Origin: Bacteroidia bacterium | GTDB lineage: Bacteria; Bacteroidota; Bacteroidia; Bacteroidales; JAPLDU01 | Assembly: GCA_026391255.1 (NCBI GenBank) | Contig: JAPLDU010000057.1 | Span: forward strand, 6,973-70,972 | Reading direction: 5' to 3' | DNA: 64,000 bases | Part shown: positions 3,391 through 39,600 of the stretch, piece by piece | How the letters are laid out: each line of letters starts with the position of its first letter | Numbering within the stretch: position 1 is the first letter of the stretch | Translations under genes and position numbers: made by a program | The notes under the pieces: generated by a model | Database searches by the model: none | What the model was told of the DNA's origin: nothing | Seen by the model: the letters and a program-made list of their open reading frames with translations, nothing else

Positions 3391-3425
3391 AGTTGTAAGT
3401 TGACAGTCGTAAGTTGTAAGTCAGG
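3391..3425. repeat. gtaagtt-word tandem array upstream of the transketolase gene
   Basis: agttgtaagttgacagtcgtaagttgtaagtcagg. Confidence 0.6.
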
Positions 3426-3430
3426 TATCA

Positions 3431-3522
3431 TGATGAGTGATGAGTGATGAGTGATGAGTCGTAGTCACGCATGGTATGCGTGTCAGGTTACAGGTCACAA
3501 GTCACAAGTCACGGGTCACAGG
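3431..3522 (+). repeat. Dispersed repeat family 2, copy 1 (gatgagt array, hairpin cacgcat-ggt-atgcgtg, gtcacaa/g array)
   Basis: It aligns with 17686-17773. It contains a 7-bp stem hairpin at 3466-3482. Confidence 0.8.
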
Positions 3523-3601
3523 AAATAATTATGAGTTATGAGTTATGAATTATGAGTAAATTAATTATCACATTATCACATTATCACATTACCACATTAC
3601 C
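3523..3601 (-). repeat. Dispersed repeat family 3, copy 2 (inverted)
   Basis: The reverse complement reads ggtaatgtggtaatgtgataatgtgataatgtgataattaatttactcataattcataactcataactcataattattt. Confidence 0.8.
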
Positions 3602-3622
3602 AAATTTTCAAATTTTCAAATC
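3601..3622. repeat. aattttca octamer array next to the rseP stop
   Basis: caaattttcaaattttcaaatc; this is the same word as in family 1. Confidence 0.6.
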
Positions 3623-3633
3623 ATTTTTTCACA

Positions 3634-5016
3634 TTATCTATGCATCCAACGGATAATATCGTTGAAATTTGCAAACAACAGCAACGAAAAAAGCAATACC
3701 ATTCCCACAATCTGGGCATATTCAAGGAATTTATCACCGGGTTTGCGGCCGGTAATGATCTCAAAAAGCAGAAAACACACGTGACCTCCATCCAGTGCAG
3801 GAATGGGAAGGATATTCATAAATGCCAGGATCACCGATAGGAAAGCAGTCATATTCCAGAAAACAGCCCAGTTCCATGATTTCGGGAAGATACTGCCAAT
3901 GGTGCCAAATCCTCCCAGTTGTTTGGCCCCTTCGCGGGTAAACACGTACTTCATCTGTTTCACATAGCTGACAAGTGTTTCAACACCAAGACCGATACCG
4001 GCAGGAATAGACGCAAAGAATCCATATGTAATCCGTTTGGTTTCAAAGAATGACCCGGGTTGCCTGTAAGCCACACCGATCTTCCCCAGTGAAGTGACCT
4101 TTAAAGTGAAATGCTGCACTGAATCATTCCTCCTGACTTCAATATTTGCTGATTTGTCCTTCAGCTTATCAAGCTGGGTCATGAATTCATAAGCGGAAGG
4201 AGTGAGTATATTATTGACAGATAATACAATATCATTCTTCTTTAATCCTGCTTCCTTAGCTGGGTTATTGGGTAAGACGCTGTCAATGACAAACGGAAAG
4301 CTGAAATCGACAAGCATGCTTACTTTTCTGGAAATCATTTTCTGGCTGAACCCTGCAGGAACAGGGATTGTGATCTTCTCTCCCTTACGTTCAACCACAA
4401 TGGTTTTCGCATTGTCAATAAGTATATGTGATGAAACATCGATGAAGCGTTCAATTTTAAAAGTATCGACACTCAGAATTTTATCCCCGTTTTTCAGCCC
4501 GATTTCAAGTGCCAGAGAATCACAGACTATTCCATATCTGGCATTTCCGGCAGGTACATATTCTTTTCCCCAGGTGTAAAGAATCATGGAATAAATACCG
4601 AGAGCCAGCAGAAAGTTGACAATTACGCCGCCAAGCATGATGAGCAAACGCTGCCAGGCCGGTTTGAAACGGAATTCCCAGGGTTGAGGCGGTTGTTTCA
4701 TTTGTTCGGTATCGAGAGATTCATCAATCATGCCGGAGATTTTCACATAACCACCTAGTGGAATCCAGCCGATTCCAAACTCAGTTTTCTCATATACGTC
4801 CGGATTATTTTCTTTGTTTTTTGAAAAAAAACTGACTATCCAACGGCCTCCGATATTCCTGAATTTGATGATCGAAAACCAGGCATTGAAAAACATGTAA
4901 AATTTTTCGATCCTTGTTTTGAAAAGCCTTGAAAATGCAAAATGTCCCATTTCATGGAGGATAACCAGTATGGTAAGGCTGAGCAATAATCCTGCTATTT
5001 GAGTGATAATTCCCAT
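3634..5016 (-). CDS. rseP: RIP (site-2) zinc metalloprotease RseP
   Basis: 460 aa with an N-terminal HEMGH zinc motif in a TM helix, PDZ-like central regions and a C-terminal NILPIPALDGG motif. It lies immediately downstream of dxr, a common arrangement. Confidence 0.9.
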   Translation of the reverse strand: MGIITQIAGLLLSLTILVILHEMGHFAFSRLFKTRIEKFYMFFNAWFSIIKFRNIGGRWIVSFFSKNKENNPDVYEKTEFGIGWIPLGGYVKISGMIDESLDTEQMKQPPQPWEFRFKPAWQRLLIMLGGVIVNFLLALGIYSMILYTWGKEYVPAGNARYGIVCDSLALEIGLKNGDKILSVDTFKIERFIDVSSHILIDNAKTIVVERKGEKITIPVPAGFSQKMISRKVSMLVDFSFPFVIDSVLPNNPAKEAGLKKNDIVLSVNNILTPSAYEFMTQLDKLKDKSANIEVRRNDSVQHFTLKVTSLGKIGVAYRQPGSFFETKRITYGFFASIPAGIGLGVETLVSYVKQMKYVFTREGAKQLGGFGTIGSIFPKSWNWAVFWNMTAFLSVILAFMNILPIPALDGGHVCFLLFEIITGRKPGDKFLEYAQIVGMVLLFSLLLFANFNDIIRWMHR

Positions 5017-6203: not shown

Positions 6204-7076
6204 TCAGAAAATAATATATTTCTCGGGGTTAAGCGGTGCCCCGTTATACCAAAGCTCAAAATGAAGATGCGGTCCGGTGGATAATTCCCCTGTATTTCCG
6301 ATGATGGCGATTGGCTCTCCTGCAGTAACATGACTGCCAATCGATTTTAAAAGTTCGGAATTATGTTTATAAACCGATATCAGGTTGTTTCGGTGCTGAA
6401 CCTGTATGATGTACCCAAAATCTATTGTCCATGTGGCATCAATAACTGTTCCGTCAAGAACTGATGTGATCACTGAGTTTTGGGCAGCAACTATATCTGT
6501 ACCGTAATGATTTTTGACCAGATCAAATTTAGCAGTGATCAGTCCTTTCAAGGGAGTAAAGAAGTGAATCCCGCTCAGAGTATTACCTGAACCGGCATTC
6601 TCGGAAGATGAAATATTAAGCGCATCCTCACTTTCAACTCTCTTCCGCAGCATTGAATCATCCTTTGATTTTGTAAATTTGATATTATCGTATTTTTTGG
6701 TGGTATCTTCTTTCTGGTCAATGGATTTGATTTTCTTACCATCCAGTATGTTTTTCAGATTAGTCAAAAATTGGTCCCTCAGGTGAATTTCATACTCCAA
6801 TGAGTCAGTTTTAAACGAATTCCTGATAATCTTTTTTCTCATATTGCCGTCGGGATAACCGGGAATAAATTCACGTAAAGGAGTAAAGGCGATAAGTATG
6901 GTAACAGCGGTGATCAGAATGATTGCGGATAATCCGACAACTACAAATACATTCATTCTTGACAGCCGGAATGAAACTACTTCTTCAAAGGTAGTATCAT
7001 TCAGGATCTTCAGATGGTATTTATCCCTGAATTTGCTGAAAATGCTGGTTTTCTTTATTAACCTTTTTGCTGCCAT
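6204..7076 (-). CDS. M23 family metallopeptidase (peptidoglycan DD-endopeptidase-like) with an N-terminal membrane anchor
   Basis: 290 aa with one N-terminal TM segment and a C-terminal M23 signature (HYGTD...GNTGELSTGPHLHFE). Confidence 0.85.
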   Translation of the reverse strand: MAAKRLIKKTSIFSKFRDKYHLKILNDTTFEEVVSFRLSRMNVFVVVGLSAIILITAVTILIAFTPLREFIPGYPDGNMRKKIIRNSFKTDSLEYEIHLRDQFLTNLKNILDGKKIKSIDQKEDTTKKYDNIKFTKSKDDSMLRKRVESEDALNISSSENAGSGNTLSGIHFFTPLKGLITAKFDLVKNHYGTDIVAAQNSVITSVLDGTVIDATWTIDFGYIIQVQHRNNLISVYKHNSELLKSIGSHVTAGEPIAIIGNTGELSTGPHLHFELWYNGAPLNPEKYIIF

Positions 7077-8741: not shown

Positions 8742-9019
8742 TGTATTATTCTCAATTTACAAATTACATTAACGGATTTTTCAGAACCGTAATACTAATG
8801 ATATATCAAAATAATTGCAAGCTTGTAAAATATTCCGGTTTTTTTAATCACAACTCCGGATTTTCACATAAATTGCAGAAATTTTAATCCTGATCATTCA
8901 GTCTGTATGGCTGAAGATTTTTGATAAAATTTGACAGGTTGCTGGATATTATATTCTCAGAATACAGATGGTTTGGCTGATAATAGAAACTGTTTTGATT
9001 TTTTAATTTTATATATTTT

Positions 9020-10130: not shown

Positions 10131-10204
10131 AACTCATTATGTATCATGTATCACTTATCACGTTGTCCTGATACCTGATACTTGATACCTGATACCCGAT
10201 ACTA
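10131..10204. repeat. Word-repeat array (actcatt / gtatca / gatacctg words) downstream of the ornithine carbamoyltransferase gene
   Basis: aactcattatgtatcatgtatcacttatcacgttgtcctgatacctgatacttgatacctgatacccgatact. Confidence 0.7.
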
Positions 10205-12271: not shown

Positions 12272-12485
12272 CGTATTTCATTAAAGTCTGCAAAACTAAA
12301 ATATTTTGTTCATAATAAACATCTCTGTTTTTTCAAGACTGAGATAAAATAATATATTAAGAAAATGTTTTGGATTTTAATTATATCTGTTATATAATTC
12401 ATATTCAACTTCTTTTGCATGCCCAAAAGTACTTAGCGAAGCGGTCTCACGAACCCCGACCTGTCGGGGTGAGTAACCAAAAGGG

Positions 12486-12586
12486 CACCACGAACGAGAC
12501 GTTTCGACAAGCTCAACGCCCATTTCTTTTGGTAACCGGCCATTGAGCCTGTCGAAATGGCATGTTGTATTCCGCACCGTTCGTGG
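12486..12586. repeat. Nested imperfect hairpin of about 100 nt in the arcC upstream intergenic region
   Basis: The outer stem pairs ccacgaacg (12488-12496) with cgttcgtgg (12578-12586). The inner stem pairs tttcgacaagctcaa (12502-12516) with ttgagcctgtcgaaa (12544-12558), with one mismatch. Confidence 0.7.
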
Positions 12587-12785
12587 ACAGCTAACGCACA
12601 GGGCTTTCATGGTCAAATATATGTGAAAAGAATATGGGATATGTAAGTTTTTTCAAATATTTTCATAATAAATGGGTGCGAAGCATAAAATAAAATATTC
12701 CTTATCAACGAATTGCTGTTTGAGTGAAGTCGAGGAACGAGACGGAACGAGTTCATCCGCCGTGGCGGACGTTAAGTCTTTTTTG

Positions 12786-12813
12786 CATACTTTTTGTGAC
12801 GACAAAAAGTATG
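12786..12813. repeat. Perfect 11-bp stem hairpin (catactttttg-tgacga-caaaaagtatg)
   Basis: I checked the arms 12786-12796 and 12803-12813 by hand. Smaller hairpins lie nearby at 12454-12469 (ccccgac/gtcgggg) and 12766-12779 (tccgcc/ggcgga). Confidence 0.7.
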
Positions 12814-17682: not shown

Positions 17683-17685
17683 AGG

Positions 17686-17773
17686 AGTGATGAGTGATGA
17701 ATTATGAGTTATGAGTCGTAATCACGTATGGCATGCGTGTCAGGTGACAGGTCACAAGTCACGGGTCACAGGA
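17686..17773 (+). repeat. Dispersed repeat family 2, copy 2
   Basis: agtgatgagtgatga..gagtcgtaatcacgtatggcatgcgtgtcaggtgacaggtcacaagtcacgggtcacagg. The hairpin is at 17723-17739, and its C-to-T change keeps a G-U-compatible pair. Confidence 0.8.
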
Positions 17774-17819: not shown

Positions 17820-17851
17820 AAATTTTCAGGAACAAAGTGAACTGAAAATTT
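17820..17851. repeat. Perfect 10-bp inverted repeat (aaattttcag ... ctgaaaattt) with a 12-nt spacer, upstream of valS
   Basis: The arms are 17820-17829 and 17842-17851. GC-rich small hairpins follow, including ccagggcttgccctgg at about 17918-17933. Confidence 0.6.
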
Positions 17852-18041
17852 TAAGTCGAATCATCCCGACAAAGTCGGAGGGTAAATACCCCGTAGCTCT
17901 GCTGCGGAACTTTGGGTCCAGGGCTTGCCCTGGGGTACATACCCGTGATTTTCCTAAACTCCTGGTGGTCTATAGTTTAAACACAATAAATTAAAGCTAA
18001 AAATATGTTAAACAAAAAATAATATGTGTCTTTTATTATAA

Positions 18042-20744: not shown

Positions 20745-20890
20745 TCTTCTATCTTATTTACTTTTTCGAAATCTGATTTCAGCTGATCAGTTTTTATATA
20801 CTTTTGTATTTGCAGATTCAATGGGCATTTATTATTAAGATAATTATCCGGGTTTTGCAGACTGAAGAATGTGAAAATGTGATTATACTT

Positions 20891-20936
20891 ATTGCCTAGT
20901 GCCTATTGCCTATTGCCTAGTGCCCAGTGCCTGATT
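20891..20936. repeat. tgcctat heptamer array next to family 1 copy 2
   Basis: attgcctagtgcctattgcctattgcctagtgcccagtgcctgatt. Confidence 0.75.
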
Positions 20937-20949
20937 AGTCGCTTAAGAT

Positions 20950-21040
20950 AGCAAACTTATCAACATGTTGTCGCTAAACATATTCCCGTGAAACGGATTT
21001 TATTTTCAAATTTTCAAATTTGCACATTTTCAAATTAATT
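20950..21040 (-). repeat. Dispersed repeat family 1, copy 2 (inverted), ending 25 nt upstream of the pepP start
   Basis: The reverse complement reads aatttgaaaatgtgcaaatttgaaaatttgaaaataaaatccgtttcacgggaatatgtttagcgacaacatgttgataagtttgct. Confidence 0.85.
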
Positions 21041-21065
21041 TAGTAACTAATTAAATAATTACGAT

Positions 21066-22460
21066 ATGTTTCCGAAAGAATTATACATCAACCGCCGCGA
21101 GCAATTGCGGAAAAAACTGCAGAGTGGAATAGTTTTATTACCGGGTAATCTTGAATCGCCCATGAATTATCCTTCCAATGGATATCACTTCAGACAGGAC
21201 AGTAATTTCCTGTATTTTTTTGGGGTTGATCTTCCCGGGATTGCCGGTATTCTTGATATTGACGAAGGTAAAGACATTCTTTTCGGAAATGATACTGATA
21301 TTGAGGATATTATCTGGATGGGTCCTCAGAAATCCATGAAAGAATTCGGGACCGACAGCGGAGCTTCCAGGGTGGAACCATATTCCGGATTGGCAACATA
21401 TATCGGATCAGCCATTGCCAAAGGAAGAACCATTCAGTATCTTCCTCCATACAGGCCGGAAAATAAAATGATCATGGGCAAATTGTTAGGTATATATCCT
21501 GACCGCATCAGGGATTATTCTTCAGTTCAGCTTATCAGGGCGATTATCAGCCTGAGAGAAATCAAAGACAGGTATGAAATTGAAGATATTGAAAAGTGTG
21601 AGGATGTTGCTTATGAAATGCACACCACTGCCATGAAAATGGCAAGACCCGGCATCCTTGAAAGCGAGATTTCCGGAGTGATTGAGGGTATTGCCCTGAA
21701 ATATGGAGGTATGATTTCTTTCCCGGTGATCTGTTCCATTCGTGGAGAAATACTGCACAATCATAATCATGGCAATCTTCTGAAAGAGGGCGATTTATTA
21801 ATTACTGATGCTGGTGCTGAATCGTCCCTGCACTATGCTTCCGATATTACCCGTACTTTTCCGGTGACAGGTAAATTTACACAGAAACAAAAGGATATTT
21901 ACCAGATTGTGCTGGATGCCAATAATACGGTGACTGCATCTTCAAAGCCTGGCATGACTTACCAGAGCGTTCATTTGCAGGCTGCCAGAGTGATAGCAGG
22001 CGGATTAAAAGACCTTGGGCTGATGAAAGGGGATATTGATGAGGCTGTTGCAGCCGGGGCTCATGCTATGTTTTTCCCACATGGTCTTGGTCACATGATG
22101 GGCCTCGATGTACATGATATGGAAGATATGGGCGAAGATTATGTTGGTTATGATTCTGAAATAAGCCGTATAGACCAGTTTGGAACTGCATACCTGAGGC
22201 TTGGAAAACGATTGAAACCAGGTTTTGTTATTACAAATGAACCAGGTATTTATTTTATTCCCGAGTTAATCAGCCAGTGGAAAAATGATAATAAATTTAG
22301 TCAGTTTATTAATTACCCGGCCGTTGAGCAGTATCTCGGGTTCGGAGGTATCCGGCTTGAAGATGACATTCTGATCACTGAATCGGGCTGCAGGATCCTG
22401 GGCAAAAAGCGGGTGCCGGTTACAATAAATGAAATTGAAAATATAGTGGGCAATATCTGA
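21066..22460 (+). CDS. pepP: Xaa-Pro aminopeptidase (M24B, aminopeptidase P family)
   Basis: 464 aa with M24 metal-ligand motifs (DAGAE...YASDITRT, HGLGHMMGLDVHD, NEPGIY, IRLEDD). Confidence 0.85.
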   Translation: MFPKELYINRREQLRKKLQSGIVLLPGNLESPMNYPSNGYHFRQDSNFLYFFGVDLPGIAGILDIDEGKDILFGNDTDIEDIIWMGPQKSMKEFGTDSGASRVEPYSGLATYIGSAIAKGRTIQYLPPYRPENKMIMGKLLGIYPDRIRDYSSVQLIRAIISLREIKDRYEIEDIEKCEDVAYEMHTTAMKMARPGILESEISGVIEGIALKYGGMISFPVICSIRGEILHNHNHGNLLKEGDLLITDAGAESSLHYASDITRTFPVTGKFTQKQKDIYQIVLDANNTVTASSKPGMTYQSVHLQAARVIAGGLKDLGLMKGDIDEAVAAGAHAMFFPHGLGHMMGLDVHDMEDMGEDYVGYDSEISRIDQFGTAYLRLGKRLKPGFVITNEPGIYFIPELISQWKNDNKFSQFINYPAVEQYLGFGGIRLEDDILITESGCRILGKKRVPVTINEIENIVGNI

Positions 22461-22550
22461 ATTAATTTGAAAATTTGAAAATGTGCAGATTTGAAAATTA
22501 AATCCGTTTTACGGGAATTAGATTAGCGACAACATTTTGGTAAGTTTGCT
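22461..22550 (+). repeat. Dispersed repeat family 1, copy 3, starting 1 nt after the pepP stop
   Basis: attaatttgaaaatttgaaaatgtgcagatttgaaaattaaatccgttttacgggaattagattagcgacaacattttggtaagtttgct. Confidence 0.85.
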
Positions 22551-22568
22551 GTCTGAAGAGACTAGGAA

Positions 22569-23310
22569 ATGATAATTATTCCCGACAATTAAAGTACAAA
22601 AATTTGGAAGGCTATACCAGTTTCGGAAAGGTACCGATAAGGTATCGATCATTGGGCGAGGGAAATACGATTGTTCTTCTGCATGGTTATCTTGAATCCC
22701 TCGAAGTTTGGGGGAAATTCGAATATTTACTGGCAAATCATTTCAGGGTTGTAAGCATTGATTTACCCGGGCATTAACTGGATATTCCCTGGGAGGATAT
22801 GTCAGCCTTGCCTTCCTTGAAAAGTATCCTTCAAGATTATCCGGAATTTGTCTGATGCATTCAAATCCCTGGAGCGACCAACCAGAAAAAAAAGCCAATC
22901 GCGACAGGGAAATCGAACTGGTGAGATCTGGTAAAAAGAATATAATAGCTTCTAATAACATGATCCAGTCTTTCTCCGATACGAATACACAATTGATGAA
23001 AACAGAAGTTGACAGGTGCATTCAGATGGCCGTCTCCACTCCTGATGACGGTATCATTGCTATGCTGGAAGGGATGAAAGTCAGGCCGGATCGAAGTGAA
23101 ACGCTGAAAAAATCAATTTTACCTGTTTTATTGATCTTTGGTAAGTACGATCATTATCTGCCTCTCGATAAAGCTTTGACCATGACTCAATTATTGGGAA
23201 TACCCACTTTTCTTGTCCTTGAAAATTCAGGCCATATGGGGTTTCTTGAAGAATCTGAAATAGCTTCTGACTTTATTATCAAAAATATTCAATCAGTTAC
23301 TTCCTGGTAA
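22569..23310 (+). pseudogene. Alpha/beta-hydrolase pseudogene with an internal deletion, a frameshift and an unclear start
   Basis: The frame with pos mod 3 = 2 reads ...[45 protein letters not shown], then TAA at 22775-77. The frame with pos mod 3 = 1 opens at 22762 and reads ..GYSLGGYVSLAFLEKYPSRLSGICLMHSNPW... through to SGHMGFLEE and the stop at 23310. About 30-40 aa normally separate DLPGHG from the GxSxG elbow, and they are missing here. No clean ATG exists in the N-terminal frame; ATG 22569 is in a third frame. Confidence 0.75.
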
Positions 23311-24042: not shown

Positions 24043-27000
24043 ATGAGAATGTTTACTAATTTTTTACGGAGTAGTAAAATTTCTGTATCAGATGTAAGAT
24101 TGCTGGGTTTCATTGTACCGGTATTTTTACTGTTGGTAAGTTTTCAGGTTAGCAATGCACAGTTATCGGTTAGTGTGACTGTTCAAACTGCCCTTATGTG
24201 CAATGGTGATACCAATGGTGCCTTACAGGCTAATCCTGATGGAGGCACTGCACCATATAGCTATCATTGGAGTAATGGGGTATCTACCCAGATAGCCAGT
24301 AATCTGGTTGCAGAAACTTACAATGTTACGGTTACAGATCATAACAGTAACACGGCTTCAACATCATATACGCTTACACAACCAACCGAGTTGGCAATTT
24401 CTTTTACTTCCCATCCTGTTACATGTTATGGAGGAAGCGACGGTGAAATTACTGCTTCTGTTTCCGGTGGTATTTCTCCGTATTTTTATCTATGGGGAAA
24501 TGGCAATACTACTGACAGTTTATCAGGTTTGCCTTATGGTGAATATGGTATTACCGTATTTGATGCCAACAGTTGTGTTGTACAGTCTTCTTTCCTGTTA
24601 ACACAATCACTCCAGATCAAAATATTCCAGAGCGGAATTCTAAATATCTTATGTAATGGAGCCAGCACGGGCTACATACACATTACCTATACAGGTGGTG
24701 TTTCTCCTTATCAGTTTCTGTGGACAGGGGGTTATACTACTCAGAATATTGACAATGTTCCGGCCGGAAACTATACTGTTACTCTGACGGATTCAAACGG
24801 ATGTAAGGCGACTAAAGCTTTTACCCTTACACAGACAGCTGTGATAAATCCGGTGATTACTCCCGTGAATGTTGTCTGTAGCGCTGACCTGACAGGCTCT
24901 TTATCTGATTCAATCACCGGAGGTACAAGCCCGTATTCATACACTTGGTCCACCGGCGCAACAACTAAGAATATTTCCGGACTGGGCACTGGTACATACA
25001 GGGTGACGGTAACGGACAGCAATAACTGTAAAAATACTGCATCTGCAAGCATTATTGCTACTTCTTTAATGACATTCTCATTACAAAAAACAGATGAAAC
25101 ATGTTACGGTCTTAATGATGGTTCCGCAACTGTTAATATTTCCAGCGGTAATCCTGTTTATAGTTATCATTGGTCGAACAGCGGAAGCACTGCCACAATC
25201 AGTGGACTCCCCATAGGTAGTTACAATGTTACCGTTACTGATGGAAATGGATGCCCGTTTGTATCTTCGAGTGTTCAGATTGTCGGACCTACACAGATTC
25301 AATATTCTACAACCGTTACTGATGTAACCTGTAATAGTGGATCAGATGGCGCTGTGCAGCTTAGTGTTTCAGGTGGAACAAGTCCTTATACTTTTGCCTG
25401 GGGTAATAATGCAACAACTCAGAATATTTCAGGACTTCATGCCGGAGATTACCAGGTGACAATTTATGACAACAATAATTGTAATACTACTACAAGTGTA
25501 ACTGTTAATCAACCTCCAGCATTGATGGCTTCATTATCAGCAAGCAATGCCTCATGTTATCTTTATAATGTTGCTCTATCCGTTTCAGGAGGAAGCACAG
25601 GTTATTCTTACTACTGGTCTGATTTTTCCAGTAGTACTGGTTTAAGCGGTGTTCTTGCAGGGCATTATTCAGTTACGGTGACAGATAGTCATCAGTGTAC
25701 TGTGACTGCCGGCATATCAATTACACAACCTGATACACTTAAGGTTACCGTTTCCGGTTATCAGAATGTGGATTGTCGTGGAAATTCAAACGGATATGTT
25801 CATATCACAGTGACAGGAGGAACAACTGGATATCAGTACTCTTGGAGCAATTTTGCGACCACCCAGAATATTGATGGTATTTCAGGCGGTACTTACTCAG
25901 TTACCGTTACTGATGCAAAAGGATGCGTGGCTACTGCTCAGCAGATTATCAATGAACCTGCTTCAGGAATTACTGCCATACTGAATGTTACCAATGTGAA
26001 TTGCCATGGTAATTCTACAGGGGCAATCGACCTTATACCCTCAGGTGGAACTTCTCCTTATTCATTCCTGTGGAATAACGGTTCTACTGATGAAGATCTG
26101 TCAGGTATTCCTGCGGGTCCTTATTCTGTAGCTGTTAAAGATACTGATAATTGTATTTACTATTTTTCAACTGAGGTTGAACAACCAGAAGCTGATCTGG
26201 TGATCAGCAATTTCAATGTGACTAATATTAATTGTCATGGTAACCACAACGGAATAGTTACTATCAATGTCACAGGTGGTACTATACCATATTATTATAG
26301 TTGGTCGAATGGTGCTACCAGTCAAAACCTTCTTGGACTTGGACCAGATACTTATAGCGTTGTAGTTACCGACAACCTTGGTTGCACTACTTCGGGCTCG
26401 TACCAGGTTTCTCAGCCGGATACATTGGTTGCAGGTTCTACATATGGTAATATTCTTTGCCATGGAGGTACAACTAATATTTCTGTTTCAGCAACGGGTG
26501 GTGTTGCTCCTTACTCCGGAACCGGAACTTTTACTGTAAACGCAGGACCATATTCATATACTGTAACAGATGCTAACTTATGTACTTCAATTACTTCCGG
26601 TTCAATAAATGAACCTGGCCAACTGTATATTGACCTCAGCGCTTCTCCTTCTTCAATATTATGTAATGGAGGCACATCAACTATTACTATTGGCGCCCAT
26701 GGTGGTGTACCACCTTATCAGGGAACAGGCGATAGTACTGTTACTGCAGGAGGTTATTTATATACAGTTTATGATTCAAACGGTTGTCCTGCTTCCGGAA
26801 CCATTCAGGTGACCGAACCGGGTGTTCTGAATATAAGTGTATCTGCAAATCCAAACCCATTACTTTGTCACGGAGATTCAGCCACAGTCACTGTAACAGC
26901 AAGCTATGGTACTCCACCTTATACTGGTACCGGGATATTTAAAGAAATTGCAGGGACATATTCTTATACTGTTACTGATAATAATGGCTGTTCTGCTTCT

Positions 27001-27070
27001 CAGAATCTGACAATTACTCAACCTGATGCATTGGTTGCAGGTTCTACATATGGTAATATTCTTTGCAATG
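24043..27070 (+). CDS. Giant SprB-repeat cell-surface protein 'gene A', 5' segment (signal peptide plus repeat modules) up to the frameshift
   Basis: ORF-track entry 24043..27414. The N-terminus (..LLGFIVPVFLLLVSFQVSNAQ) is signal-peptide-like. It is followed by repeating C.G..DG.I...V.GG..PY.Y.W....T..I.GL..G.Y.VTVTD.NGC modules. Meaningful repeat translation stops at about 27070, and the 27071-27414 tail is out-of-frame junk. Confidence 0.85.
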
Positions 27071-27630
27071 TACGACTAATATTTCTGTTACTGCAACCGG
27101 TGGTATTTCTCCTTATAGTGGAACTGGTACTTTTAGCGTACATGCAGGACCATATTCATATAGTGTGTCGGATGCTAACGGATGTTCTTCAACTACTTCC
27201 GGTTTTATTTATGAACCTGACCAACTGTATATCGATCTCAGCGCTAATCCTTCTTCAATATTATGTAATGGCGGCACCTCAACTATTACTGTTGGCGCCC
27301 ATGGCGGTGTATCACCATATCAGGGAACAGGCAATTTTATCGTTACCGCAGGGGGACATTTATATACAGTTTATGATTCAAACGGTTGTCCTGCTTCCGG
27401 AACCATTCAGGTAACCGAACCAACTGTTCTGAACATCAGTGTATCTGCAAATCCAAATCCATTACTTTGTCACGGCGATTCAGCCACTGTCACTGTAACA
27501 GCAAGCTTTGGTACTCCACCTTATACCGGTACAGGAACATTCAAAAAAATTGCAGGAACATATACATACACAGTTACTGATCATAATGGTTGTAATGCAT
27601 CACAGGAGATTACAATTACGCAGCCTTCTG
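26423..27630 (+). repeat. Tandem duplication of a 606-bp unit (three ~67-aa modules) inside gene A
   Basis: Copy 1 (26423-27028) and copy 2 (27029-27630) align collinearly at roughly 90% identity by eye. Their first 38 nt (26423-26460 and 27029-27066) are identical. Copy 2 lacks 4 nt directly after that identical run. Confidence 0.85.
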
Positions 27631-30600
27631 CCCTTGTAGCTTCTTCGTCTGCTACTCCGATTTTGTGCAACGGCGGAACTTCTACTGTATCAGTTTCAGC
27701 TTCGGGTGGTACCACTCCATATTCCGGAGTCACTGATTATACTGTAATTGCAGGTTCATATACTTATTCAGTAACCGATGCTAACGGATGTACAGCTATA
27801 ACTAGTATTACCATCACTCAACCTGGCGCTCTTGCATTAGCCCCAACCATTCATAACGGACATTGCTTTAACGCAAATGACGGATATATTCACCTGCTTA
27901 TTTCCGGTGGAGTAACTCCTTATGCAATTCTCTGGTCAACTTCGGAAACTACCGCCAATATTGATAACCTGGCAGCCGGTGGCTATCAGGTTAATGTTAC
28001 AGATGCCAATGGTTGTCAGATATCCGGTTCTTACGAGATATCTCAACCACCCGCATTAACTGTACAGGCACATGGCACTGACCTTACATGTTACCACAAT
28101 TACACAGGTGTGGTATGGGCGGTCGTCGGAGGAGGTACTACTCCATATTCATATCATTGGATAAATTCTGCCACTACCGATACTGTTAATGGCTTAACCA
28201 TCGGATACTATTCGGTGGTCGTAACAGATGCCAATAACTGTATTGCTTCATCTGATATTATTATTAATGAACCTGATTTACTCATAATTTCCCTGAGTAC
28301 CACTAACGTACCCTGCAATGGAGGAACAGGTACCATTACCAGTTTTGTCCAGGGTGGTTCGGGACAATATGCATATAACTGGTCAAACGGAGCTACCACT
28401 GCAAATCTGACTGTTGTTGCCGGTACCTATATAGTAACGGTGACCAGCGGTGTTTGTATTGTTAAAGATTCGGCGACTATTGTCCAACCACCGGTGTTGC
28501 GCGCTCAGATTGATTCAATTCATAATGTGATGTGCTATGGTGATCATAATGGATACATTTATGTTACAGTTTCCGGTGGTGTTACTCCATATGCTTATAT
28601 TTGGACCAACGGAGCCACAATTGAAGATCTTACCGGGCTCAACGGAGGAAGCTATCAATTAACGGTTACGGATATGAATAACTGTCATGTGACTCTCAGC
28701 CAGACAATCAGTGAACCTTTAGCTCCCTTAACGACAGCAATTTTCGGTACAAACCTGCTCTGTTATAATGATTTTACCGGCACTGACAGTTTAGCCATCA
28801 GTGGCGGAACTACACCATATTATATATATTGGAATAACGGAGCAACAATTCAGAAACTGAATCATGTGGCTTCAGGAAATTATTCAGTGACTGTGACTGA
28901 TGCTCATGGTTGCACTTCTATCCAGAGTAATACTCTTACCCAACCATCTGAGATCATTGTCCAGACTGCTGTATTAAGTAATGTTTCCTGTTATGGCCTG
29001 CACGATGGTGCAGCATATCTTTCATCAATTACCGGAGGCGTTACTCCTTTTACAATCCAATGGACAGGTCCGAATAATTTTACATCTTCCGATCAGACTA
29101 TTAACAATCTGTACGCAGGAACTTATTATGTTAATGTGTTTGATGGAAACAATTGTCCTGCTACCATACACCCATCTGTAACTGTTACACAACCAGATCC
29201 ATTAGTAGTGACATATTATAAGCAGAATGTCGATTGTTATGGAAACAGCACCGGCGGAATTGATATTACCGTGACGGGAGGAACAACTCCTTATATTTAT
29301 GCCTGGAGTAATTCTGCCACAACCCAGGATATTACAGACCTGAGCGCAGGTAGTTACACCTTAACCCTTACTGATTATCACGGTTGTATTGTTGATACAA
29401 CAATTACCATATATCAGCCTGATGCACCATTAATGATTAGTACTTATTCAGTCCACAATGTAAATTGCTTTGGAGGAAACGACGGTTATATTAATATTAC
29501 AGTAACAGGTGGTACCACTCTTTATAGCTACCAATGGTCAAACGGTGAATCTACACAGACTACCACAAATCTGGCTGCCGGAGTGTATAGTGTGACTGTT
29601 ACTGATGCCCATGGATGCAAGGTTTATATGACGTTTGATGGATTCGATGAAGTCACTCAGCCGGATGCTCCACTAGCTCTGGATTATGAGGTTACCGATG
29701 TCAGTTGCAACGGTTTTAGTGACGGTAATGTTTCCCTTACTATTACAGGTGGTACACCTCCATATATAAAAGACTGGTATGATCACCTTCATAATGTTAT
29801 AGGTCATAATGCTTATATCGATGGAATTCCTGCGGGTAATTACAGTGTGGTAGTGACGGATGCAAATAATTGCGTTATCAGCGCTCAAATGACTGTTAAT
29901 CAACCAGTACTTCTGACTTTATCAGATTCTACATCTCATTATCACCAGTTCCAGGTCAGTTGTTACGGATCAAGTGATGGTTGGATTACAGTAATTCCTG
30001 CCGGTGGTACTTCTCCATATACTTATCTTTGGGACATTGGTTCTACAGTTGCTCATATCACTGGCCTTGCTGCCGGTTCATATCATGTTACTGTAACTGA
30101 TGCACACGGTTGTATTTCAAATATCACCGTTGTCCTTAACGGGCCAACTCCTGTTCAAATCCCCGAGCCTGTTCTTGTGAACATTTCATGTCATGGCGGA
30201 AACAACGGATCAATAAATATTTCACCGCTGGGCGGAACAGGTGTGTTTACTTACTACTGGACAGGTCCGAATAATTTTACAGCGTATTCCCAAAATATTA
30301 ATAACCTGTATGTTGGGACCTATTATATTACCGTTACTGACCAGAATGGTTGCAATGCTGATGCTAATTATTCACTTTCAGAACCGGAAGCATTACAATT
30401 AAGTTCAGTGTTATCTAATTACAATGGATTTAATGTTAACTGCTATGCCAATAACGACGGTTACATCAATACCACCATCAGCGGTGGAACATCTGGATAT
30501 ACATATCATTGGAGCAACGGAGCAACCACAGGTAATATTATGAACCTGTATGCCGGTAATTATTCTCTTACGGTGACTGATGCTCATGGTTGTATTATTA

Positions 30601-33600
30601 CCGGAGCCTGGACACTTACAAAGCCTGATCTATTGATTGCACAGGCCAATATTACATCAAATTATCACGATCAAAATATCAGTTGTAACGGTGCCAATGA
30701 TGGTGCTGCCTGTGTAGTTGGCCAGGGAGGCCTGACTCCTTACACTTATTTATGGTCAAATGGCGCTACTACATCATGTATTAGTGGTTTGCAGCCGATA
30801 AGCTACAATGTTACCATTACAGATTTCAATGGATGTGTAAGCAATAGCAATGTTGGCGGCAATTTACCGTGGACTTACAACGTAACTGAGAATTCTGCTG
30901 TTATTTTACTTCAGACCAATACGGTATTATTAATAGGCAGCCCTGCTCAGCCAATAGCCGTTGGCGATTACATCGGCGTATTCTATACCAATGGCGGTAA
31001 CCTCGTTTGTGGTGGTTACATGTTATGGAACGGATCGAATAACTCTATCACCGCCTGGGGAGATGATCCAATCACCGTTGGTGTGAAAGAAGGTTTTGCT
31101 CCCGGTGAAACATATACCTGGAAAATCTGGAGACCATATTTTGGTGAATTTAATGCTACTGCTGCTTATATTCCTATCATTCCTCCAAATCCACCTTTTT
31201 CAGCTACTTCTCATTATTCAAACGATGGAATATCCGGCCTTTTAAGCTTAATTTCGACTGAAACACTGAATATCACTCATACCGTGATCCAGCTACATCA
31301 GCCGGCTGCTCTGAGCTTATCGTTCAATACTACCAATGTTCTTTGTTCCGGCGGTTATTCCGGATCAATCAATCTTACTGTTACCGGCGGAACTATGCCT
31401 TATACATATTTATGGTCTCCCGGAGGCGCTACTACTCAAAATATAAATGCATTACAAGCTGGTATGTATTATGTAACCGTAATGGACGTCAATAATTGTT
31501 CTGTCACCGGATCGGTTCAAATAACCAGCCCGGAACCACTTTCATACGAGATAATTACTAATGATGTATCATGTTACGGTGGATCAGATGGAAGAGTACA
31601 AATAATTCCTTCCGGCGGTGTTTCTCCATATACATTTAACTGGGGAGGTTATAATCCTGTAGCATTGGCTGCCGGAACCTATAATGTAACAATTACTGAT
31701 CATAATAACTGCCAGCAGGTGGCAACGTTTGATATTTATCAGCCTTCAGTGCCTATGACTCTGCAGTATCAGGCAAACAATGTAACCTGCTACGGGTATT
31801 CCAATGGTTCAATATCACTCTCAGTTGAGGGAGGGACTATAACACCATGTGGTCATTATAGTTTTTCCTGGTCTGGCCCGAATTATTATTTTAATGAATC
31901 ACAAAATATAAATAATCTCATCGCTGGTATATATACTGTTACTGTTACCGATTGCAATGGTTGTATAAAAATTCAAAGTGTGACAGTCGGACAACCGGAT
32001 GCAATTACTATACCGGGTTTAATCTCTAATTATAGTGGTTATGGCGTTAGTTGCAACGGTTCAGCCGATGGATCAATAAATATAACTGTAATGGGTGGCA
32101 CTACACCATATATTTATATGTGGGATAATTTAGCAACAACAGAAGATATGTCAGGTTTGACTTCAGGTGTTTATAGTGTGATAGTTCATGATGTTAACAA
32201 CTGTATGGGAAGTGCCAGTTTCTCGTTAACTGAACCCGCTCATATCACATTGAGTGCTGTTGCTACATCATCATTTGTTGTTAATGGAAATACTTACAAT
32301 ACTACCTGTAATGGGAATAACGGTACTATTAGCTTGTCTGTCAGCGGTGGTTCTGGAATTTATTTCTACCATTGGTCATATGGACAGACCACTCAGAATC
32401 TGAATGGTGTTCCGGCGGGATATTATACTGTTACAGTTACTGACAGCAACGGATGCCAGGCTGTTTCAAATACTGTGAACCTCACAGCTCCCGGCCCGCT
32501 CGATGTTACCTTGAGTTCAGATAATTTCAATGGTTATCAGATACAATGTAATGGTATGACTGCCAATTTGTACCTGAACTGGTCAGGTGGTGCATCACCT
32601 TATAATATATACTTTAATAACGGAGTATTTGCCATGAATGTAACCGGTAACACCTATTCACATTCCGGCTTTGCACCTGGTACTTACTGGGCTGCAATTT
32701 ATGATCATAATGGATGCGGAAGGTTATCAAATCAGTTTACTGTAACTCAGCCAGCTCCAATTCAGTTCCCTCCAAATGCTGTTACAAGTGTTAGTTGTCA
32801 TGGCGACGGTGATGGTTCCATTAATCTTACAAATATGTTGGGTGGCGTTCCTCCTTTCACTTATCAATGGGATTATAATGCTAACTGGTCAACTGCTGCA
32901 CAGATTACAGGATTACCTGGTGGATCATCATACTATGTTGTTGTATGGGATGCTAACGGTTGTTCGGAAGGAACCACATTTACCATACCTGAACCTGCTC
33001 CTTTGGTGTATCTCAGTAATACAACAGGAAATGTTTCCTGTTACGAAGGATCAAACGGACATATTACACCATCTGTATCCGGTGGTACATTACCATATTC
33101 CTACACTGCCATGAATCAGAGCAATGTCTTGTTTAACCAGATAATTGCACTACCAGCCGGGACATATTCCGTTACTGTTACAGATGCACATGGTTGTACT
33201 GCTGTAATGAATGGTATTGTAATAACCCAGCCGGTTATGTTAATGGCTTCTTCTTCTTCTACAAGTATTTTATGCCACGGAGGTAATTCAACAGTCACTG
33301 TTTCTGCTACCGGAGGCACATTGCCCTATACCGGAACAGGAACATATACAGTTGTTGCAGGTACTTATTCCTACACGGTTAGTGATGCTCTTGGATGTAA
33401 TTCAGTTACAACAATCACGGTTACAGAACCAACTGTTCTTACTGCTTCTTCCGTAGCTACTCCGATTTTATGTAATGGTGGAAATGCCACTGTAACTGTT
33501 ACTGCTTCGGGAGGTACTGGTTTAATTAGCGGAACAGGTACATTTAACAGAACTGCAGGTACATGGTCATTTACAGTTACAGATGCCAATGGTTGTACAG

Positions 33601-36600
33601 CAACTACATCAGTAACTATTGCACAACCAACACCTGTTGTTGTTGAATTATCAGCTACTCAAATTGCCTGTTATGGTGGCAACTCAACAGTTACCGTCAG
33701 TGCAACCGGAGGAACAGGTACATATACCGGAACAGGTACATTTACCAGAACATTTGGAACCTGGTCGTTTACAGTGACAGATGCCAATGGTTGTTCAGGA
33801 TCATCAAGTATTACCATATCACAGCCCACTCAACTGACTGCTTCTGCTTCAACAACCATTGTTTCGTGCAATGGCGGAAGTGACGGAACCATCACATTAT
33901 CAGTTTCCGGTGGTATTACTCCTTATTCGTTTAACTGGGCTGATGGACCTACCACACAAAATCGCAGTGACCTTACTGCCGGAACCTACTATGTAGTGGT
34001 TTATGATGGAAACGGTTGTTTTGTTGATGTAAATGCAACTATAACAGAAAATACATTATTGCATGCTATTGCAAATCCGGGTGTTATCTTATGTCAAGGT
34101 GGCAGTACAAATGTTGTTATCACGGCTACAGGAGGAACAGTACCATATTCAGGAACCGGTACTTTTACCCAGTCAGTTGGAAGTCACACATATACAGTAA
34201 CTGATATTAATCAATGCACAGCCAATATCTTGGTTACTTTAACGGAACCTGCTTTATTGCAAGCTATAGCAACTCCTGGTTTTATTCCATGTCATGGAGG
34301 CAGTACCAGTGTTGTTATCACCTCAACAGGTGGAATCGGAATAGTTACAGGAACCGGTACATTTACTCAGTCTGTGGGTAGCCACACATACACTGTGACG
34401 GATGCTAACGGATGTACTGCTTCTACTATCGTTACATTAACTGAACCTGCTACCCTTGCTTATACATTAACCATTAACTCTCCATTATGCCATGGAAGCA
34501 GTGATGGTTCAATTGACCTGAATGTTACCGGAGGAACAACTCCTTATACCTTTATTTGGAATACAGGTGCAACCGATCAGAATCTGACAAATATCGGCGT
34601 TGGCAGTTATTCAGTTACCATATATGATATGCATTCATGCTCTGTCAGCGGATCATTTGTTGTAACGCAGCCTAATGCATTAGGAATACAATACAGTATA
34701 ACAAGTTCGACCTGCGGGTTATCTGATGGTGAGATATTAATTACCGGTTATTCCGGTGGTACTGCACCATATTTGGTAACCTGGGCTCATACTGTTTCAC
34801 ATAACCCGATACAACTCTATCTTGCTCCCGGAAATTATTATGCAACCATTACAGATGCTAATAATTGTGAACTGACTCAAGTATTTACAGTTGTTAACTT
34901 TAATCATTTGTCCTTTGTAACTGCTCCAATTCATAATGTCAGTTGTTTTGAAGGAAATGACGGATCAATTACCCTTTCTGTTTCGGGTGGCTTCCTTCCT
35001 TTGACCTATTTATGGTCCAATGGTGAAACCACACAGAATGCTGTTAATCTGACGGCAGGTTTTTACACAGTTACGGTTATTGATGCAAACGGATGTACAG
35101 GAACTACCAGTGCCACTGTGATACAGGCACCCAGCCTTCTGCACTCCAGTATTTCTTCATCAGCAGTTTCTTGTCCCGGAGGTAGTAATGGTGCTTTGGA
35201 TCTAACAGTACTTGGTGGCTTAACGCCATATACATATCATTGGAATACAGGAGCTACAACCGAAGATCTCAGCAATCTGCCGGCAGGTAATTATTCTGTA
35301 ACTGTGACTGATTACTATGGTTGTCAAAACATTCCGACAGCTACTGTTGAGCAGCCTCCTGTTATTCAGGCAACATTCGTAAAATCTAATTACAACGGTT
35401 ATAATATAAGTTGTTTTGGTTCTGCTACAGGGAGTATCGATATGACAGTTATCGGTGGTACAACTCCTTATACTTATCTCTGGTCAACAGGTGCTACCAC
35501 ACAAAACCTTGCCAATACGTCAAACGGCAATGCTTCAAATGTGACTTACACCGTTACCATTACCGATCATCATGGTTGCACCCAAACAGCCTCTACCATA
35601 ATGACTCAGCCTGGTACTCCGAACCTGCAGTTTACTCATCCACCTATCACAACTTGCTATGGTGATCCGATAGGACATATTACGCTGACGGTGACATTTA
35701 CTGGATTAACTCCTCCTCCTCCATACACATATCTCTGGTCAAACGGTGCTACAACACAAAGTTTAACGAATATACCAGGAGGAATATATTTTGTAACATT
35801 CACCGATGCTAACGGATGCCAGACAATGACCCAGACAACTCTTATACAACCTACTCAGGTAATTGCTACTGCAACTACGACTACCAACTTTAACGGTTAT
35901 AATGTTAGTTGTTTCGGTTCATCTAATGGCGCTGCCATTGTTAATGCAACTGGTGGTAATGGTCCATATACATTTAAGTGGAGTGATCCATCCGGTACTA
36001 CAAATCAGACAATTTCAGGAATTACTGCAGGTACATTTAACGTTACCGTTACCGACTCTCATACTTGTACAGCAACCTCTTCAGTGATACTTACCCAGCC
36101 TCCGGCTATCACATTATCGTCGCAAATTACAATCGTGAATTGCAATGGTAACAATACGGGCGCTATTGACGTTACTCCCGGCGGAGGTGTTTTACCTTAC
36201 TTATTTCAGTGGTCTAACAGTTCGACAACACAGGATATTTCAAACCTGGTTGCCGGATTTTATTCTATCACACTTACTGATGCAAATACGTGTACTGCTT
36301 CTGCAAGTTACCTTGTTACTCAGAGTTCAGCTATCAATATCACTAATCCGGTGATTACTAAAGTCAATTGTTACGGTAGTGCGACCGGAATGATCAGTAT
36401 TACAGTATTTGGAGGAAGTTCGCCTTACGACTTTAACTGGTCAAATGGTAGCACTGTTCAAAATCCTTCGGGACTGTTAGCCGGGCCTTATAATCTTACG
36501 ATAACAGATGCACATGGATGTACTAAAACAGCTTCTTATACAGTTACCACGAATCCTCAGTTAACATTATCAGGGCCGATTAACAATGTTTCCTGTTTTG

Positions 36601-39600
36601 GAGGTAATAATGGAGCTATTAATATTATAGCTGGAGGTGGTGTAACACCATATTTATATATTTGGAGTGACGGACCTACTTCTCAAAACAGATCAGTCCT
36701 TGTTGCAGGTACGTATAATATCACTGTTATTGATGCCGCATTATGTAGTATTACCGGTTCCTTTATCGTTACTCAGCCAGACCAGTTAATTGCCGATGAT
36801 GTCATTACAGACGTAAGTTGTTACGAGGGTACGAATGGCGCAATTAATCTGACTGTTACCGGTGGTACGACTCCATATTCATACGTTTGGAGCAATGGAG
36901 CACATACTAAAGATATCAGTAACCTGGTTGCAGGTAATTACTCTGTGGTAATCACAGATACTCATTCATGTACAATCAGTGGAGCTTATGTTGTGAATCA
37001 ACCTCCAATTTTCCTGGCAAATACTCAATTAGTATCAGGAATCAGTTGTTTCGGCTCCAGTGACGGAGTAGTAACTGTGGTTGAGACCAATGGTGTTGCT
37101 CCATTTACCTATCTTTGGAGTAATGGCGGTTCTACAGCCACAATTTCAGGACTTGCTACCGGAACTTATTCTGTTACGGTAACCGATGCCCATGGTTGTG
37201 TAGCTAATAGTGTTCTTCCTCCATTCCCATGGAATTTTACGGTTACCAGTACAAATCATACAATAGCAATTCAACCTTCAACAGTATTTGATATTGGCGG
37301 AAGTAATATCCAGATAGGTGACTATATCGGAGTTTTCTACAACTATGGCGGTACTTTACATTGTGGTGGTTATGTACAGTGGACAGCTGCCAGTGCTTCC
37401 TTTGGTACTTCCCTGGCTGCCTGGGGAGTTGACGTAAGTGGTGATGGATTCGTATCTGGTGAACCATTTAACTGGAAAATATGGCGTTCAAGCTTTGGAT
37501 ATGATGTGAATGCTACTGCTGTAGCCAATCCGTTATTTGACCCGTTCAATTTTAATAACGGCTCACTAAGTGCTCTTCAATCACTCACTGTCAGCCCGTC
37601 GGATATTCCGACTGATCCTAATCAGATTACATTAACACAACCTACACCTGTAACAGCAGCCATATATATGATATCCTCTCCGATAACATGTGCCGGTGGT
37701 GTTACTTCACTTATTGCTGCTCCTGCCGGTGGTACAGCTCCTTATTCATTCCTCTGGAGTAATAATGTCACTACCCAGACTTTGAATAATATACCTGTTG
37801 GTACATATTACCTTACGGTTACTGATGCTCATGGATGTACCGGAACAGCTCAGTATATTGTTACCGGACCTGATCCGTTTGCATTTAGTTACTCAGTTAA
37901 TGAACCTTCCTGCTATGGATATTCCAATGGTTCTGCAGATGTGACGGTTACTGGTGGTGCTTCACCTTATACGATTATCTGGACTACCATAGGCCAGTTC
38001 GGAACCCATGCTTCCAACCTTTCTGCAATAACATATCCGTTATTTATCATTGATAGTCATAACTGTACCGGATACTCATCAGTATCTGTTGCTCAACCTG
38101 ATGCAATCAGCCTGTTTACAACTGTAACCAATATTAATTGTAATGGATCTGCAACCGGAGCTATTACCCTGGCTGTTACAGGAGGAACATCGCCTTATAC
38201 TTACAACTGGTCTAACGGAGCTACAACTAAAGATATCAGCGGACTCGTTGCTGGCACATACACAGTAATAGTCACTGATTTAAACGGTTGTACATCATCA
38301 ACTAGTGCAACTGTCACTCAATCTGCTGCAATAGGAATAACATATGTGGTTACTGACAATAACTGCAATTATAACCAGATTGGTGCTATTAATATCACAG
38401 TTACGGGAGGTACTTCACCTTATACTTATTCCTGGTCAAACGGAGCGACAACTGAAGATATCAGTGGTCTTACTTCAGGAACTTATCATGTGGTTGTAAC
38501 AGATGTTAATGGTTGTACCGGAAGTACAAGTGCCACGGTTTCTATTATTAATCCTCTGTTTGAGACTTTAAAGATTATAACCCCGGTGAGTTGTGCTGAA
38601 GGGAATAATGGTTCTGTTCATATTGTAATCAATTTTGGTCATAATAATATTACCTGGAAAGATTTCAACAATGTTACCCTTACTACTTCATATGATGCTG
38701 CTTCATCAACCTTAAGTAATGTCATTTCCGGTATTTATTATGTAAATGTATACAACCTGATAACCGGCTGTACATTGCTTGATACTGTTGAAGTTACCGA
38801 ACCGGATCCTCTCACATATGATGCAGTTGTCACCAATGTAAGTTGTTACAAGGGTTCAAATGGCGGAGTTGACCTGACTGTTTACGGAGGAACTACCCCG
38901 TATACCTACCAGTGGTCAACCGGAGCTGTAAATCTTGGAACTACACAGGATCTGACTAATAAAAAGGCAGGTACTTACAAAGTTATTGTGACTGATGCAC
39001 ATGGTTGTACATTTGATGCAATATTTACTCTTACCCAGCCTACTAAGATTACCCCAAGCGTATTGATTTCCAACCTGAATTGCAACGGCGATCAGTCTGG
39101 CAGTATTGATCTGAGCGTCAGCGGTGGTATTACTCCTTATTTATACAACTGGAGTACCGGAGCTCATACACAGGATATTTCAGGATTATCCGGAGGAACA
39201 TATGTTGTGTCAGTAACTGATGAAAATGGTTGTGTTGTTGTAAATACATCCGTAGTGACTGAACCTGCTGTTCTTGCTGTTACAATGTCAGGAGTGAATG
39301 TCAACTGTTATGGTGGTAATGACGGCCATGCAACAGCATTAGTATCAGGCGGAACAACTCCACCTATTAATTTTGTCTGGAGCAACGGAGGAAGCAATGA
39401 TAATATTTCAGGGATATATGCAGGTACTTATTATGTAAGTGTTTATGATGCTAACGGTTGTAATGCTTTGAATTCAATTGTAATTACAGAACCTCCACAA
39501 TTGACTCTTAGTGTAATTCAGGATGTATTCAACAGCGGCTCATTCTGTGAAGCACTTGCAACTGCCGGTGGTGGTTCACCCTCTTATACTTATCAATGGT

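Follow-up and report, generated by a model that had tools for sequence, protein, structure and literature searches.

The DNA analysed here, referred to as the window, is a 64-kb stretch of contig JAPLDU010000057.1 from a Bacteroidia metagenome-assembled genome (MAG). The genes of its first 24 kb are housekeeping genes (suf, dxr, an M50 protease, a murein ligase, the arginine pathway, upp, valS and pepP), and from 24 kb to 64 kb it carries giant SprB-repeat genes. Within the first part lie three copies of a short repeat element, here called copies A, B and C, of which B and C stand in inverted orientation on either side of pepP (21066–22460, + strand). The pepP product is an Xaa-Pro aminopeptidase (AMP_N and Peptidase_M24 domains) identical to MCX6257825.1 of a Bacteroidia MAG.

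Three copies of a composite repeat element

Copy A (2072–2178, + strand) fills the spacer between a cation-efflux gene (1429–2079) and an Fe-S assembly gene (ATG at 2200). Copy B (20936–21043, – strand) is inverted, with its right end adjoining an array of TGCCTAG heptamers (20890–20932, + strand) and its other, octamer-bearing end 22 nt upstream of the pepP ATG at 21066. Copy C (22457–22564, + strand) follows pepP and ends 4 nt before the ancestral ATG of a hydrolase gene at 22569. The copies were located within 24 kb by a repeat finder and by nhmmer, and are 107–108 nt long. Pairwise comparison over the whole element gave 90–92 matches in 108 aligned columns (A–B 83%, A–C 85%, B–C 85%). In 3/3 copies the aligned similarity starts at (C)T(A/G)AATTAATTTG and ends at ...GACTA or ...GTCTA, the boundaries being sharp and in the same register. 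An 18-mer and a 25-mer probe from the element each hit three sites, exactly copies A, B and C, against shuffle expectations of 0.07 and 0.00, and the repeat finder independently recovered the same arms at 84–85% complementarity. No fourth copy was found in the 64-kb window by nhmmer with filters off.

An initial annotation of the window had already recognized the three copies, on whose existence alignment, repeat finder, probes and nhmmer agree. Its extents of ~90 nt placed each copy correctly and stopped short at the right end, where similarity reaches ~15 nt further. It had also noted that copy A overlaps the stop codon of the upstream gene, and the TAA at 2077–2079 indeed lies within the element. 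Two of its distances needed correction: copy B had been put 25 nt before the pepP ATG, and copy C had been said to start 1 nt after the pepP stop, which is itself included (TGA, 22458–22460) in the opening bases CTGA of that copy. The observation that the gaaaat-rich end always faces the adjacent coding sequence is literally correct but carries little weight, since copies A and C take up nearly the whole of their spacers, with the opposite end 21 nt (A) and 4 nt (C) from the next start codon.

The element is composed of an octamer array, which takes up its first ~44 nt, and a 64-nt non-repetitive core (AATCCGTTTYACGGGAA...TTAGCGACAACAT...TAAGTTT...GACTA). In copy A the array (2078–2113, + strand) consists of AATTTGAA repeated 4.5 times, with the variant unit AATGTGCA in third place; the array of copy C (22464–22499, + strand) has the same unit order, and that of copy B (21002–21036, – strand) has the variant unit second, a whole-unit rearrangement. 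All three reading frames of this octamer head meet TAA and TGA triplets within ~24 nt. At 4.4–4.5 units per copy, the head has the hallmarks of STRR-like arrays, namely 5–11-nt units placed head to tail in at least three copies and confined to spacers, a likeness that covers only the ~44 nt at the start of the element. The core is 80–86% identical between copies, and when searched alone with nhmmer it retrieved them with E = 5e-21 to 6e-20; the resemblance is thus not limited to gaaaat words, as the initial annotation had allowed it might be. Direct reading of the sequence revealed no conserved open reading frame (ORF) within the element, and a small-ORF reading was rejected on the same basis.

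Junctions and signs of insertion

The copies are flanked by gTA...cTA (A), cTA...cTA (B) and cTG...cTA (C), flanks that are compatible with a TA or CTA duplication. When copy A was removed on paper together with one TA, the cation-efflux gene ended in '...aac gta ttg TAA', 15 nt before the ATG of the Fe-S gene. The same operation on copy C, with its left TG read as TA, produced a pepP gene ending in '...atc TAG' and followed by gaa, with the ATG at 22569 located 3 nt after the TAG; this ATG aligns with the hydrolase start of a relative (contigs L061/L062). The stop codons of both upstream genes now lie within the first bases of the element, and the G of CTGA in copy C is the one change at that position that preserves a stop (TAA to TGA). 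Taken together, the junctions and stop codons agree with, but do not prove, an insertion at a TA that was part of the stop codon or adjacent to it.

[quoted passage not shown] Being small, non-coding and present in several dispersed copies, it does resemble one. However, terminal inverted repeats (TIRs) were not detected: the first 35 nt and the reverse complement of the last 35 nt align with a score of only 6–7, which is reached by 32–91% of shuffles, in 3/3 copies. No transposase, including those of the RAYT and Y1 types, is present among the genes of the window. What stands of the earlier description is a discrete, multi-copy and probably inserted element, and the label of a MITE in the strict sense falls, as does that of a cassette (see below). 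Assignment to the REP/REPIN families was rejected as well, given a conserved stem of only 4 bp and the lack of a RAYT/Y1 gene in the window.

Probable copies beyond the window

Logan contigs of the same organism from five runs (ERR15302175, ERR15302179, ERR15302191, ERR15302223 and SRR20698651) are identical to the window but end at the element. Their terminal 30-mers start at 2072 and 22457, that is, at the left edge of copies A and C, and at 21044, one base outside copy B. One contig ends at 2101 and contigs of three other runs begin at 2102, a position thus common to four runs. Logan contigs are built at k = 31, and copies A, B and C have no 30-mer in common. If k is 31, breaks at the left edge call for further copies or variants outside the window with the same first 30 nt and different flanks. 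The breaks therefore imply copies outside the window and lend the left boundary independent support, although array length polymorphism within the population could also cause them.

Searches of other collections returned nothing that can be assigned to the element. Exact scans with the hairpin 18-mer AAATCCGTTTYACGGGAA of 185,579 species genomes and of metagenome contigs of the Joint Genome Institute (JGI) yielded 59 and 65 single matches, respectively, all in unrelated taxa and none extending past 24 nt, as expected by chance. In viral contigs the second of two signatures had 0 matches and the first had 4 single 18-mer matches, whose extent beyond 18 nt was not compared. No match to the element was found in plasmid and phage collections. 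Exact-protein look-ups gave only short Logan contigs of the same locus, and those of valS (with two start choices) and of the hydrolase fragment gave no match.

A proposed MITE-like repeat without TIRs

We propose, with a probability of roughly 60%, that the element is a lineage-specific, non-coding, MITE-like dispersed repeat of ~103–108 bp that lacks TIRs and was inserted independently in AT-rich gene junctions. Each copy would have entered its junction separately, most likely at a TA dinucleotide, and in copies A and C the upstream gene's stop codon would have contained the target TA or adjoined it. The three-frame stops of the head would end the upstream protein after 0–2 extra codons, which would make such an insertion tolerated and could explain why the octamer end is the one that abuts coding sequence. 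The element pushes once-tight junctions apart, and any effect on expression is probably incidental. Speculatively, the gene downstream could again be transcribed from a –7-type promoter box that faces outward at the right end.

Several points weigh against this proposal. With neither TIRs nor a transposase in the window, the mode of movement is unproven, and the three copies seen directly all come from the same 64 kb. The TA/CTA flanks hardly vary between copies and may be termini of the element, not target duplications. The relatives, at 62–72% amino acid identity, are too distant to provide empty sites at base level. The copies differ from each other by 15–20%, and nothing shows recent activity. 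The argument from contig breaks, for its part, hinges on the k of the assembler, and array-length differences between strains are another possible cause.

Among known systems, a close parallel from Bacteroidetes is BrickBuilt, an intergenic MITE of Porphyromonas gingivalis that shows promoter activity and has a tandem repeat in its interior (Klein et al. 2015, PMC4596501). Like the present element, it is strictly intergenic, multi-copy and species-restricted, and combines a tandem repeat with unique 'leader' and 'tail' parts and promoter-like elements (PMC4596501). It differs in having small inverted-repeat ends and a 23-nt unit and in being much longer, whereas the element described here lacks TIRs, is built on an 8-nt unit and has just a single unique arm; the two have no sequence similarity. 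The octamer head recalls the intergenic heptamer arrays of Beggiatoaceae, cyanobacteria and a few Bacteroidetes, whose close relatives have shorter, array-free spacers (MacGregor 2015, PMC4679880). In both cases the units are 7–8 nt long, confined to spacers and often located at start or stop codons, and the spacers of syntenic relatives are shorter. However, those are pure arrays with the unit TAACTGA, whereas here an array of AATTTGAA travels fused to a 64-nt unique core. The cyanobacterial arrays of this type are the short tandemly repeated repetitive (STRR) heptamer arrays, reportedly described by Mazel and colleagues in 1990.

TA-targeting MITEs derived from IS630/Tc1-mariner, such as the Correia elements of Neisseria, are ~100–150 bp long, intergenic, often situated at gene ends and TA-flanked, and can carry outward promoters. 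They have clear terminal inverted repeats and long hairpins. The element matches them in size, gene-end location and TA flanks, and departs from them in having neither TIRs nor a long hairpin. The small dispersed repeats (SDRs) of Nostocales, reported by Elhai and colleagues in 2008, are said to be ~21–27 nt long and often nested in other repeats. They too are tiny, mobile-looking repeats without TIRs or coding capacity, in genomes rich in heptamer arrays, but the length of the element is about four times theirs. REPs, which RAYT transposases mobilize, are imperfect palindromes rich in GC and 20–40 nt long (PMC3116915). The REP/BIME/REPIN group shares with the element the character of short non-coding dispersed repeats at gene 3′ ends (PMC3116915), but the element is rich in AT, the one palindrome conserved in it measures 4 bp and no RAYT gene is seen in the window.

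Spacer arrays and other composite families

The element is one instance of a genome-wide habit of filling spacers with arrays and composites. In the first 24 kb, ~785 of the 4478 intergenic nucleotides belong to tandem arrays with units of 7–9 nt, and none of note occurs in coding sequence; all arrays scoring at least 40 are in spacers. At least 10 unit sequences are represented (window 1–24042), including TAATGTGG, ACTCATA, TGATGAG, CAGGTCA, CCTGATA and TGCCTAG. Examples are found at 835–913, 3391–3621, 10167–10202 and 17685–17772, in addition to the array next to copy B. The spacers of the window are 1.3–7 times longer than those of the syntenic, array-free relative L061.

Two further composite families were found. 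The second family, (TAATGTGR)n + TAATTTA + (CTCATAA)n, occurs as an inverted pair at 836–935 (+ strand) and 3507–3606 (– strand), the two copies being 87% complementary. The first repeat unit of its first copy starts with the TAA stop codon (835–837) of a cysteine desulfurase gene. The third family is built around a 7-bp hairpin core, CACGCAT-GGT-ATGCGTG, and has copies at 3431–3520 and 17685–17772, both on the + strand; TGATGAG-type heptamers flank this core on the left and CAGGTCA/ACAAGTC heptamers on the right, and the aligned stretch is ~86% identical (mean column identity).

The array mosaics bear on the possibility that ~100-nt segments are copied passively from spacer to spacer, where arrays of 7–8 nt held in common would seed recombination, gene conversion or template switching; the element would then be just another patch of this sort. 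This possibility is consistent with the composite patches common to different loci, with the rearranged unit order of copy B, which reflects slippage dynamics, and with the want of both TIRs and transposase. The same octamer also exists as a solo AATTTGAA array without core at 3601–3621 (– strand). It lies 13 nt past the M50 protease stop codon, and its sense orientation is that of copies A and C. However, conversion tracts should vary in length, whereas the boundaries are sharp and identical at both ends, including the right end, where copies A and C have no array that could seed the exchange, and the excision reconstructions yield clean junctions. We regard passive copying as possible but doubtful; together with the regulatory and RNA explanations treated below, it is ranked below insertion because it is less well supported.

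A bolder form of the insertion proposal, which we consider quite unlikely, would make the element and its sister composites products of a single, undescribed, TIR-independent insertion system of this lineage of Bacteroidia. It would target TA at stop codons, supply a three-frame stop pad and an outward promoter of its own and in this way remodel operon junctions, and might be mechanistically akin to whatever spreads the STRR-type heptamer arrays in cyanobacteria and Beggiatoaceae. If an element of this kind, mobile without inverted repeats and targeting stop codons, were real, it would offer a handle on the origin and spread of tandem-array-rich repeats in bacterial spacers, and on whether such repeats rewire operon junctions in Bacteroidetes. 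As matters stand, the element is a real but ordinary feature of a spacer-repeat-rich Bacteroidia MAG. Its significance lies mainly in annotation, in that it accounts for the break-up of short-read assemblies at gene junctions and for spacers several-fold longer than those of relatives.

Promoter boxes and a possible regulatory role

The sequence TAnnTTTG reportedly serves as the –7 promoter box of Bacteroidetes, a consensus ascribed to Bayley and colleagues in 2000. Copy C contains a perfect match, TAAGTTTG (22541–22548, + strand), situated 20 nt upstream of the hydrolase gene's ancestral ATG and pointing out of the right end. The same box occurs in copy B (20952–20959, – strand), and copy A has TAAGTTTT, a 7/8 match (2155–2162, + strand), 37 nt upstream of the ATG of the Fe-S gene. 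At 43 nt upstream of the pepP start codon there is a palindromic CAAATTTG, likewise a 7/8 match. The relative has a TATATTTG box of its own in the 36-nt spacer between pepP and the hydrolase gene, which the element could replace.

These matches raise the possibility that the element is a selected cis-regulatory module, be it a promoter, an array of protein-binding sites in a 3′ untranslated region or an insulator pair that makes pepP its own transcription unit. Precedents are found in the promoter activity of BrickBuilt (PMC4596501) and in the proposal that post-transcriptional regulators act at heptamer arrays (PMC4679880). However, the boxes are weak evidence, as 24 kb contain 33 occurrences of TAnnTTTG, of which 16 are intergenic, and direct reading found no –33 TTG at proper spacing. 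The box of copy B faces away from any gene, the gene 3′ of copy C is decayed, and the flanking genes have no functional relation to one another. The invariant blocks of the core are not clustered above chance (p = 0.13–0.24), giving no sign of block-wise constraint among three copies, and the relatives manage without the element. A selected regulatory function is unlikely in the light of these findings, and nothing points to the paired regulatory or insulator elements that the initial annotation had also considered.

Hairpin and RNA structure

Each copy contains a mini hairpin, CCGT-TTY-ACGG, with a 4-bp stem and a 3-nt loop (copy A, 2118–2128, + strand; copy B, 20986–20996, – strand; copy C, 22504–22514, + strand). 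The loop reads TTC in copy A and TTT in copy C; since the sole substitution falls in the loop, the hairpin provides no covariation information. The initial annotation had pointed out this hairpin, and its presence is borne out in 3/3 copies, but at 4 bp it is too small to carry the significance attached to it. RNAalifold on the three aligned copies returned zero compensatory pairs on either strand and an unfavourable covariation term.

A structured small RNA or a cis-acting RNA motif present in several copies would account for the retention of the hairpin, and the array additionally folds as an AU-rich hairpin. However, the register of the latter shifts in copy B, and folding z-scores (both strands, three copies) range from –2.1 to +0.2, mostly near those of shuffled sequences, with 5/6 folds between –1.3 and +0.2. 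Rfam gave no match in the 64 kb at gathering thresholds, and none on the element at E ≤ 5 (positions 1–24100). We consider an RNA function very improbable.

An intrinsic terminator was also considered and rejected, as no GC-rich stem followed by a T run occurs in the element. A terminator scan flagged TCCGT/ACGGG in copy B only; among the 5 pairs of this weak stem there is a G-T pair, and its tail, AATATGTTTA, barely satisfies the T-count rule of the scan. The matching tails in copies A and C (AAAAAGATTA and AATTAGATTA) are not T-rich.

The inverted pair around pepP

A search of 5.8 billion proteins gave a second-best pepP match of 72% identity, and there is thus no close relative on record. 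The relative L061/L062 has the same gene order, upp-DUF5686-valS-pepP-hydrolase-SprB, without the element. Its spacers along this segment measure 73, 262, 43, 36 and 552 nt, compared with 341, 728, 321, 108 and 732 nt in the window (the 728-nt figure uses a valS start corrected to 18108). The two spacers around pepP, of 43 and 36 nt, show nothing of the element, and this relative lacks short-period arrays. In a second relative, L064, the valS-pepP spacer is 22 nt long. The longest valS ORF opens at TTG 18042, and alignment with the relative locates the true start at ATG 18108 (MEIPAKYDP...). For copy A, a third relative, L135, whose cation-efflux gene has 62% amino acid identity, retains the suf-CDF-FeS block, and the core is absent.

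Because the order valS-pepP-hydrolase is kept in a relative without the element, pepP is a resident gene around which two spacers have been enlarged. At 85% identity, copies B and C are no closer to each other than to copy A, although a composite transposed in one piece should have nearly identical ends. When three copies were placed at random in the 19 spacers of the gene-dense part, two of the three were in adjacent spacers in 27% of trials, and adjacent and inverted in 14%. Synteny and copy divergence show that the bracketing pair does not delimit a cassette; the two copies are, in all probability, separate and old insertions in the spacers on either side of a resident gene, and the inverted arrangement is most likely a coincidence. 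The findings show no special link of the element to pepP.

The initial annotation had suggested a MITE-bounded cassette. The notion that the inverted pair delimits a composite element with pepP as cargo, or an integron-type attC cassette, draws on the location of inverted copies 22 nt upstream of the gene and on its stop codon, and is barely credible given the conserved synteny, the 85% identity of the flanking copies and an arrangement expected by chance (p = 0.14–0.27). A composite transposon was rejected on these grounds, and an integron attC site was ruled out on direct reading, as attC sites are direct, with RYYYAAC/GTTRRRY cores, whereas the copies here are inverted and have no pair of core sites.

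Other repeats and neighbouring genes

Spacer repeats fragment the short-read assemblies of the five runs at nearly every gene junction, and Logan contigs L001 and L130–L134 end within them (window 847, 2101/2102, 3468, 21015 and 22486). Contig L132, a candidate for a diverged strain, is identical to the window over 555 nt and then drops to ~60% inside a transketolase gene; it is a probable chimera and was set aside. Among the array units, 19/20 hold a stop triplet on at least one strand, compared with 77% expected from composition; the excess is marginal (p of about 0.04), and the arrays are not independent. As the periods are 7 or 8, every reading frame is closed within three units.

Arrays of its own were found in the relative L135 (JGI sample 3300045411), with the units CATGGAG, GAGAAAT and AATTTTG, as well as a 14-mer, TAAACTGAGGACTG, similar to the TAACTGA repeat of the literature. 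Arrays and core sites in L135 are located at 4107–4280, 6725–6776, 2617–2646 and 8821–8847. A short dispersed core peculiar to this relative (CCCAACCTGCA...) is fused to an AATTTTG array in two spacers, and the two spacers with AATTTTG-type arrays are those in which the window has its AATTTGAA arrays.

Two long spacers of the window contain GC-rich, hairpin-rich non-coding stretches (12400–12800 and 17840–17965; e.g. ccccgacctgtcgggg, ccgccgtggcgg and ccagggcttgccctgg). Unlike the arrays, which are AT-rich, these stretches may represent another class of repeat or unannotated RNAs; they have no Rfam match.

The alpha/beta-hydrolase gene that follows copy C (22569–23310) looks decayed when compared with the 276-aa protein of the relative, in that residues 58–89 are missing and the two parts that are left lie in different frames. 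From the ancestral ATG at 22569 a stop is met after 7 codons. The gene could be a real pseudogene or bear an assembly indel. The giant SprB-repeat gene further downstream is split into overlapping ORFs at 24043–27414 and 27063–40067, implying a frameshift near 27.1–27.4 kb; in L061 the homologue forms one ORF that exceeds 5000 aa.

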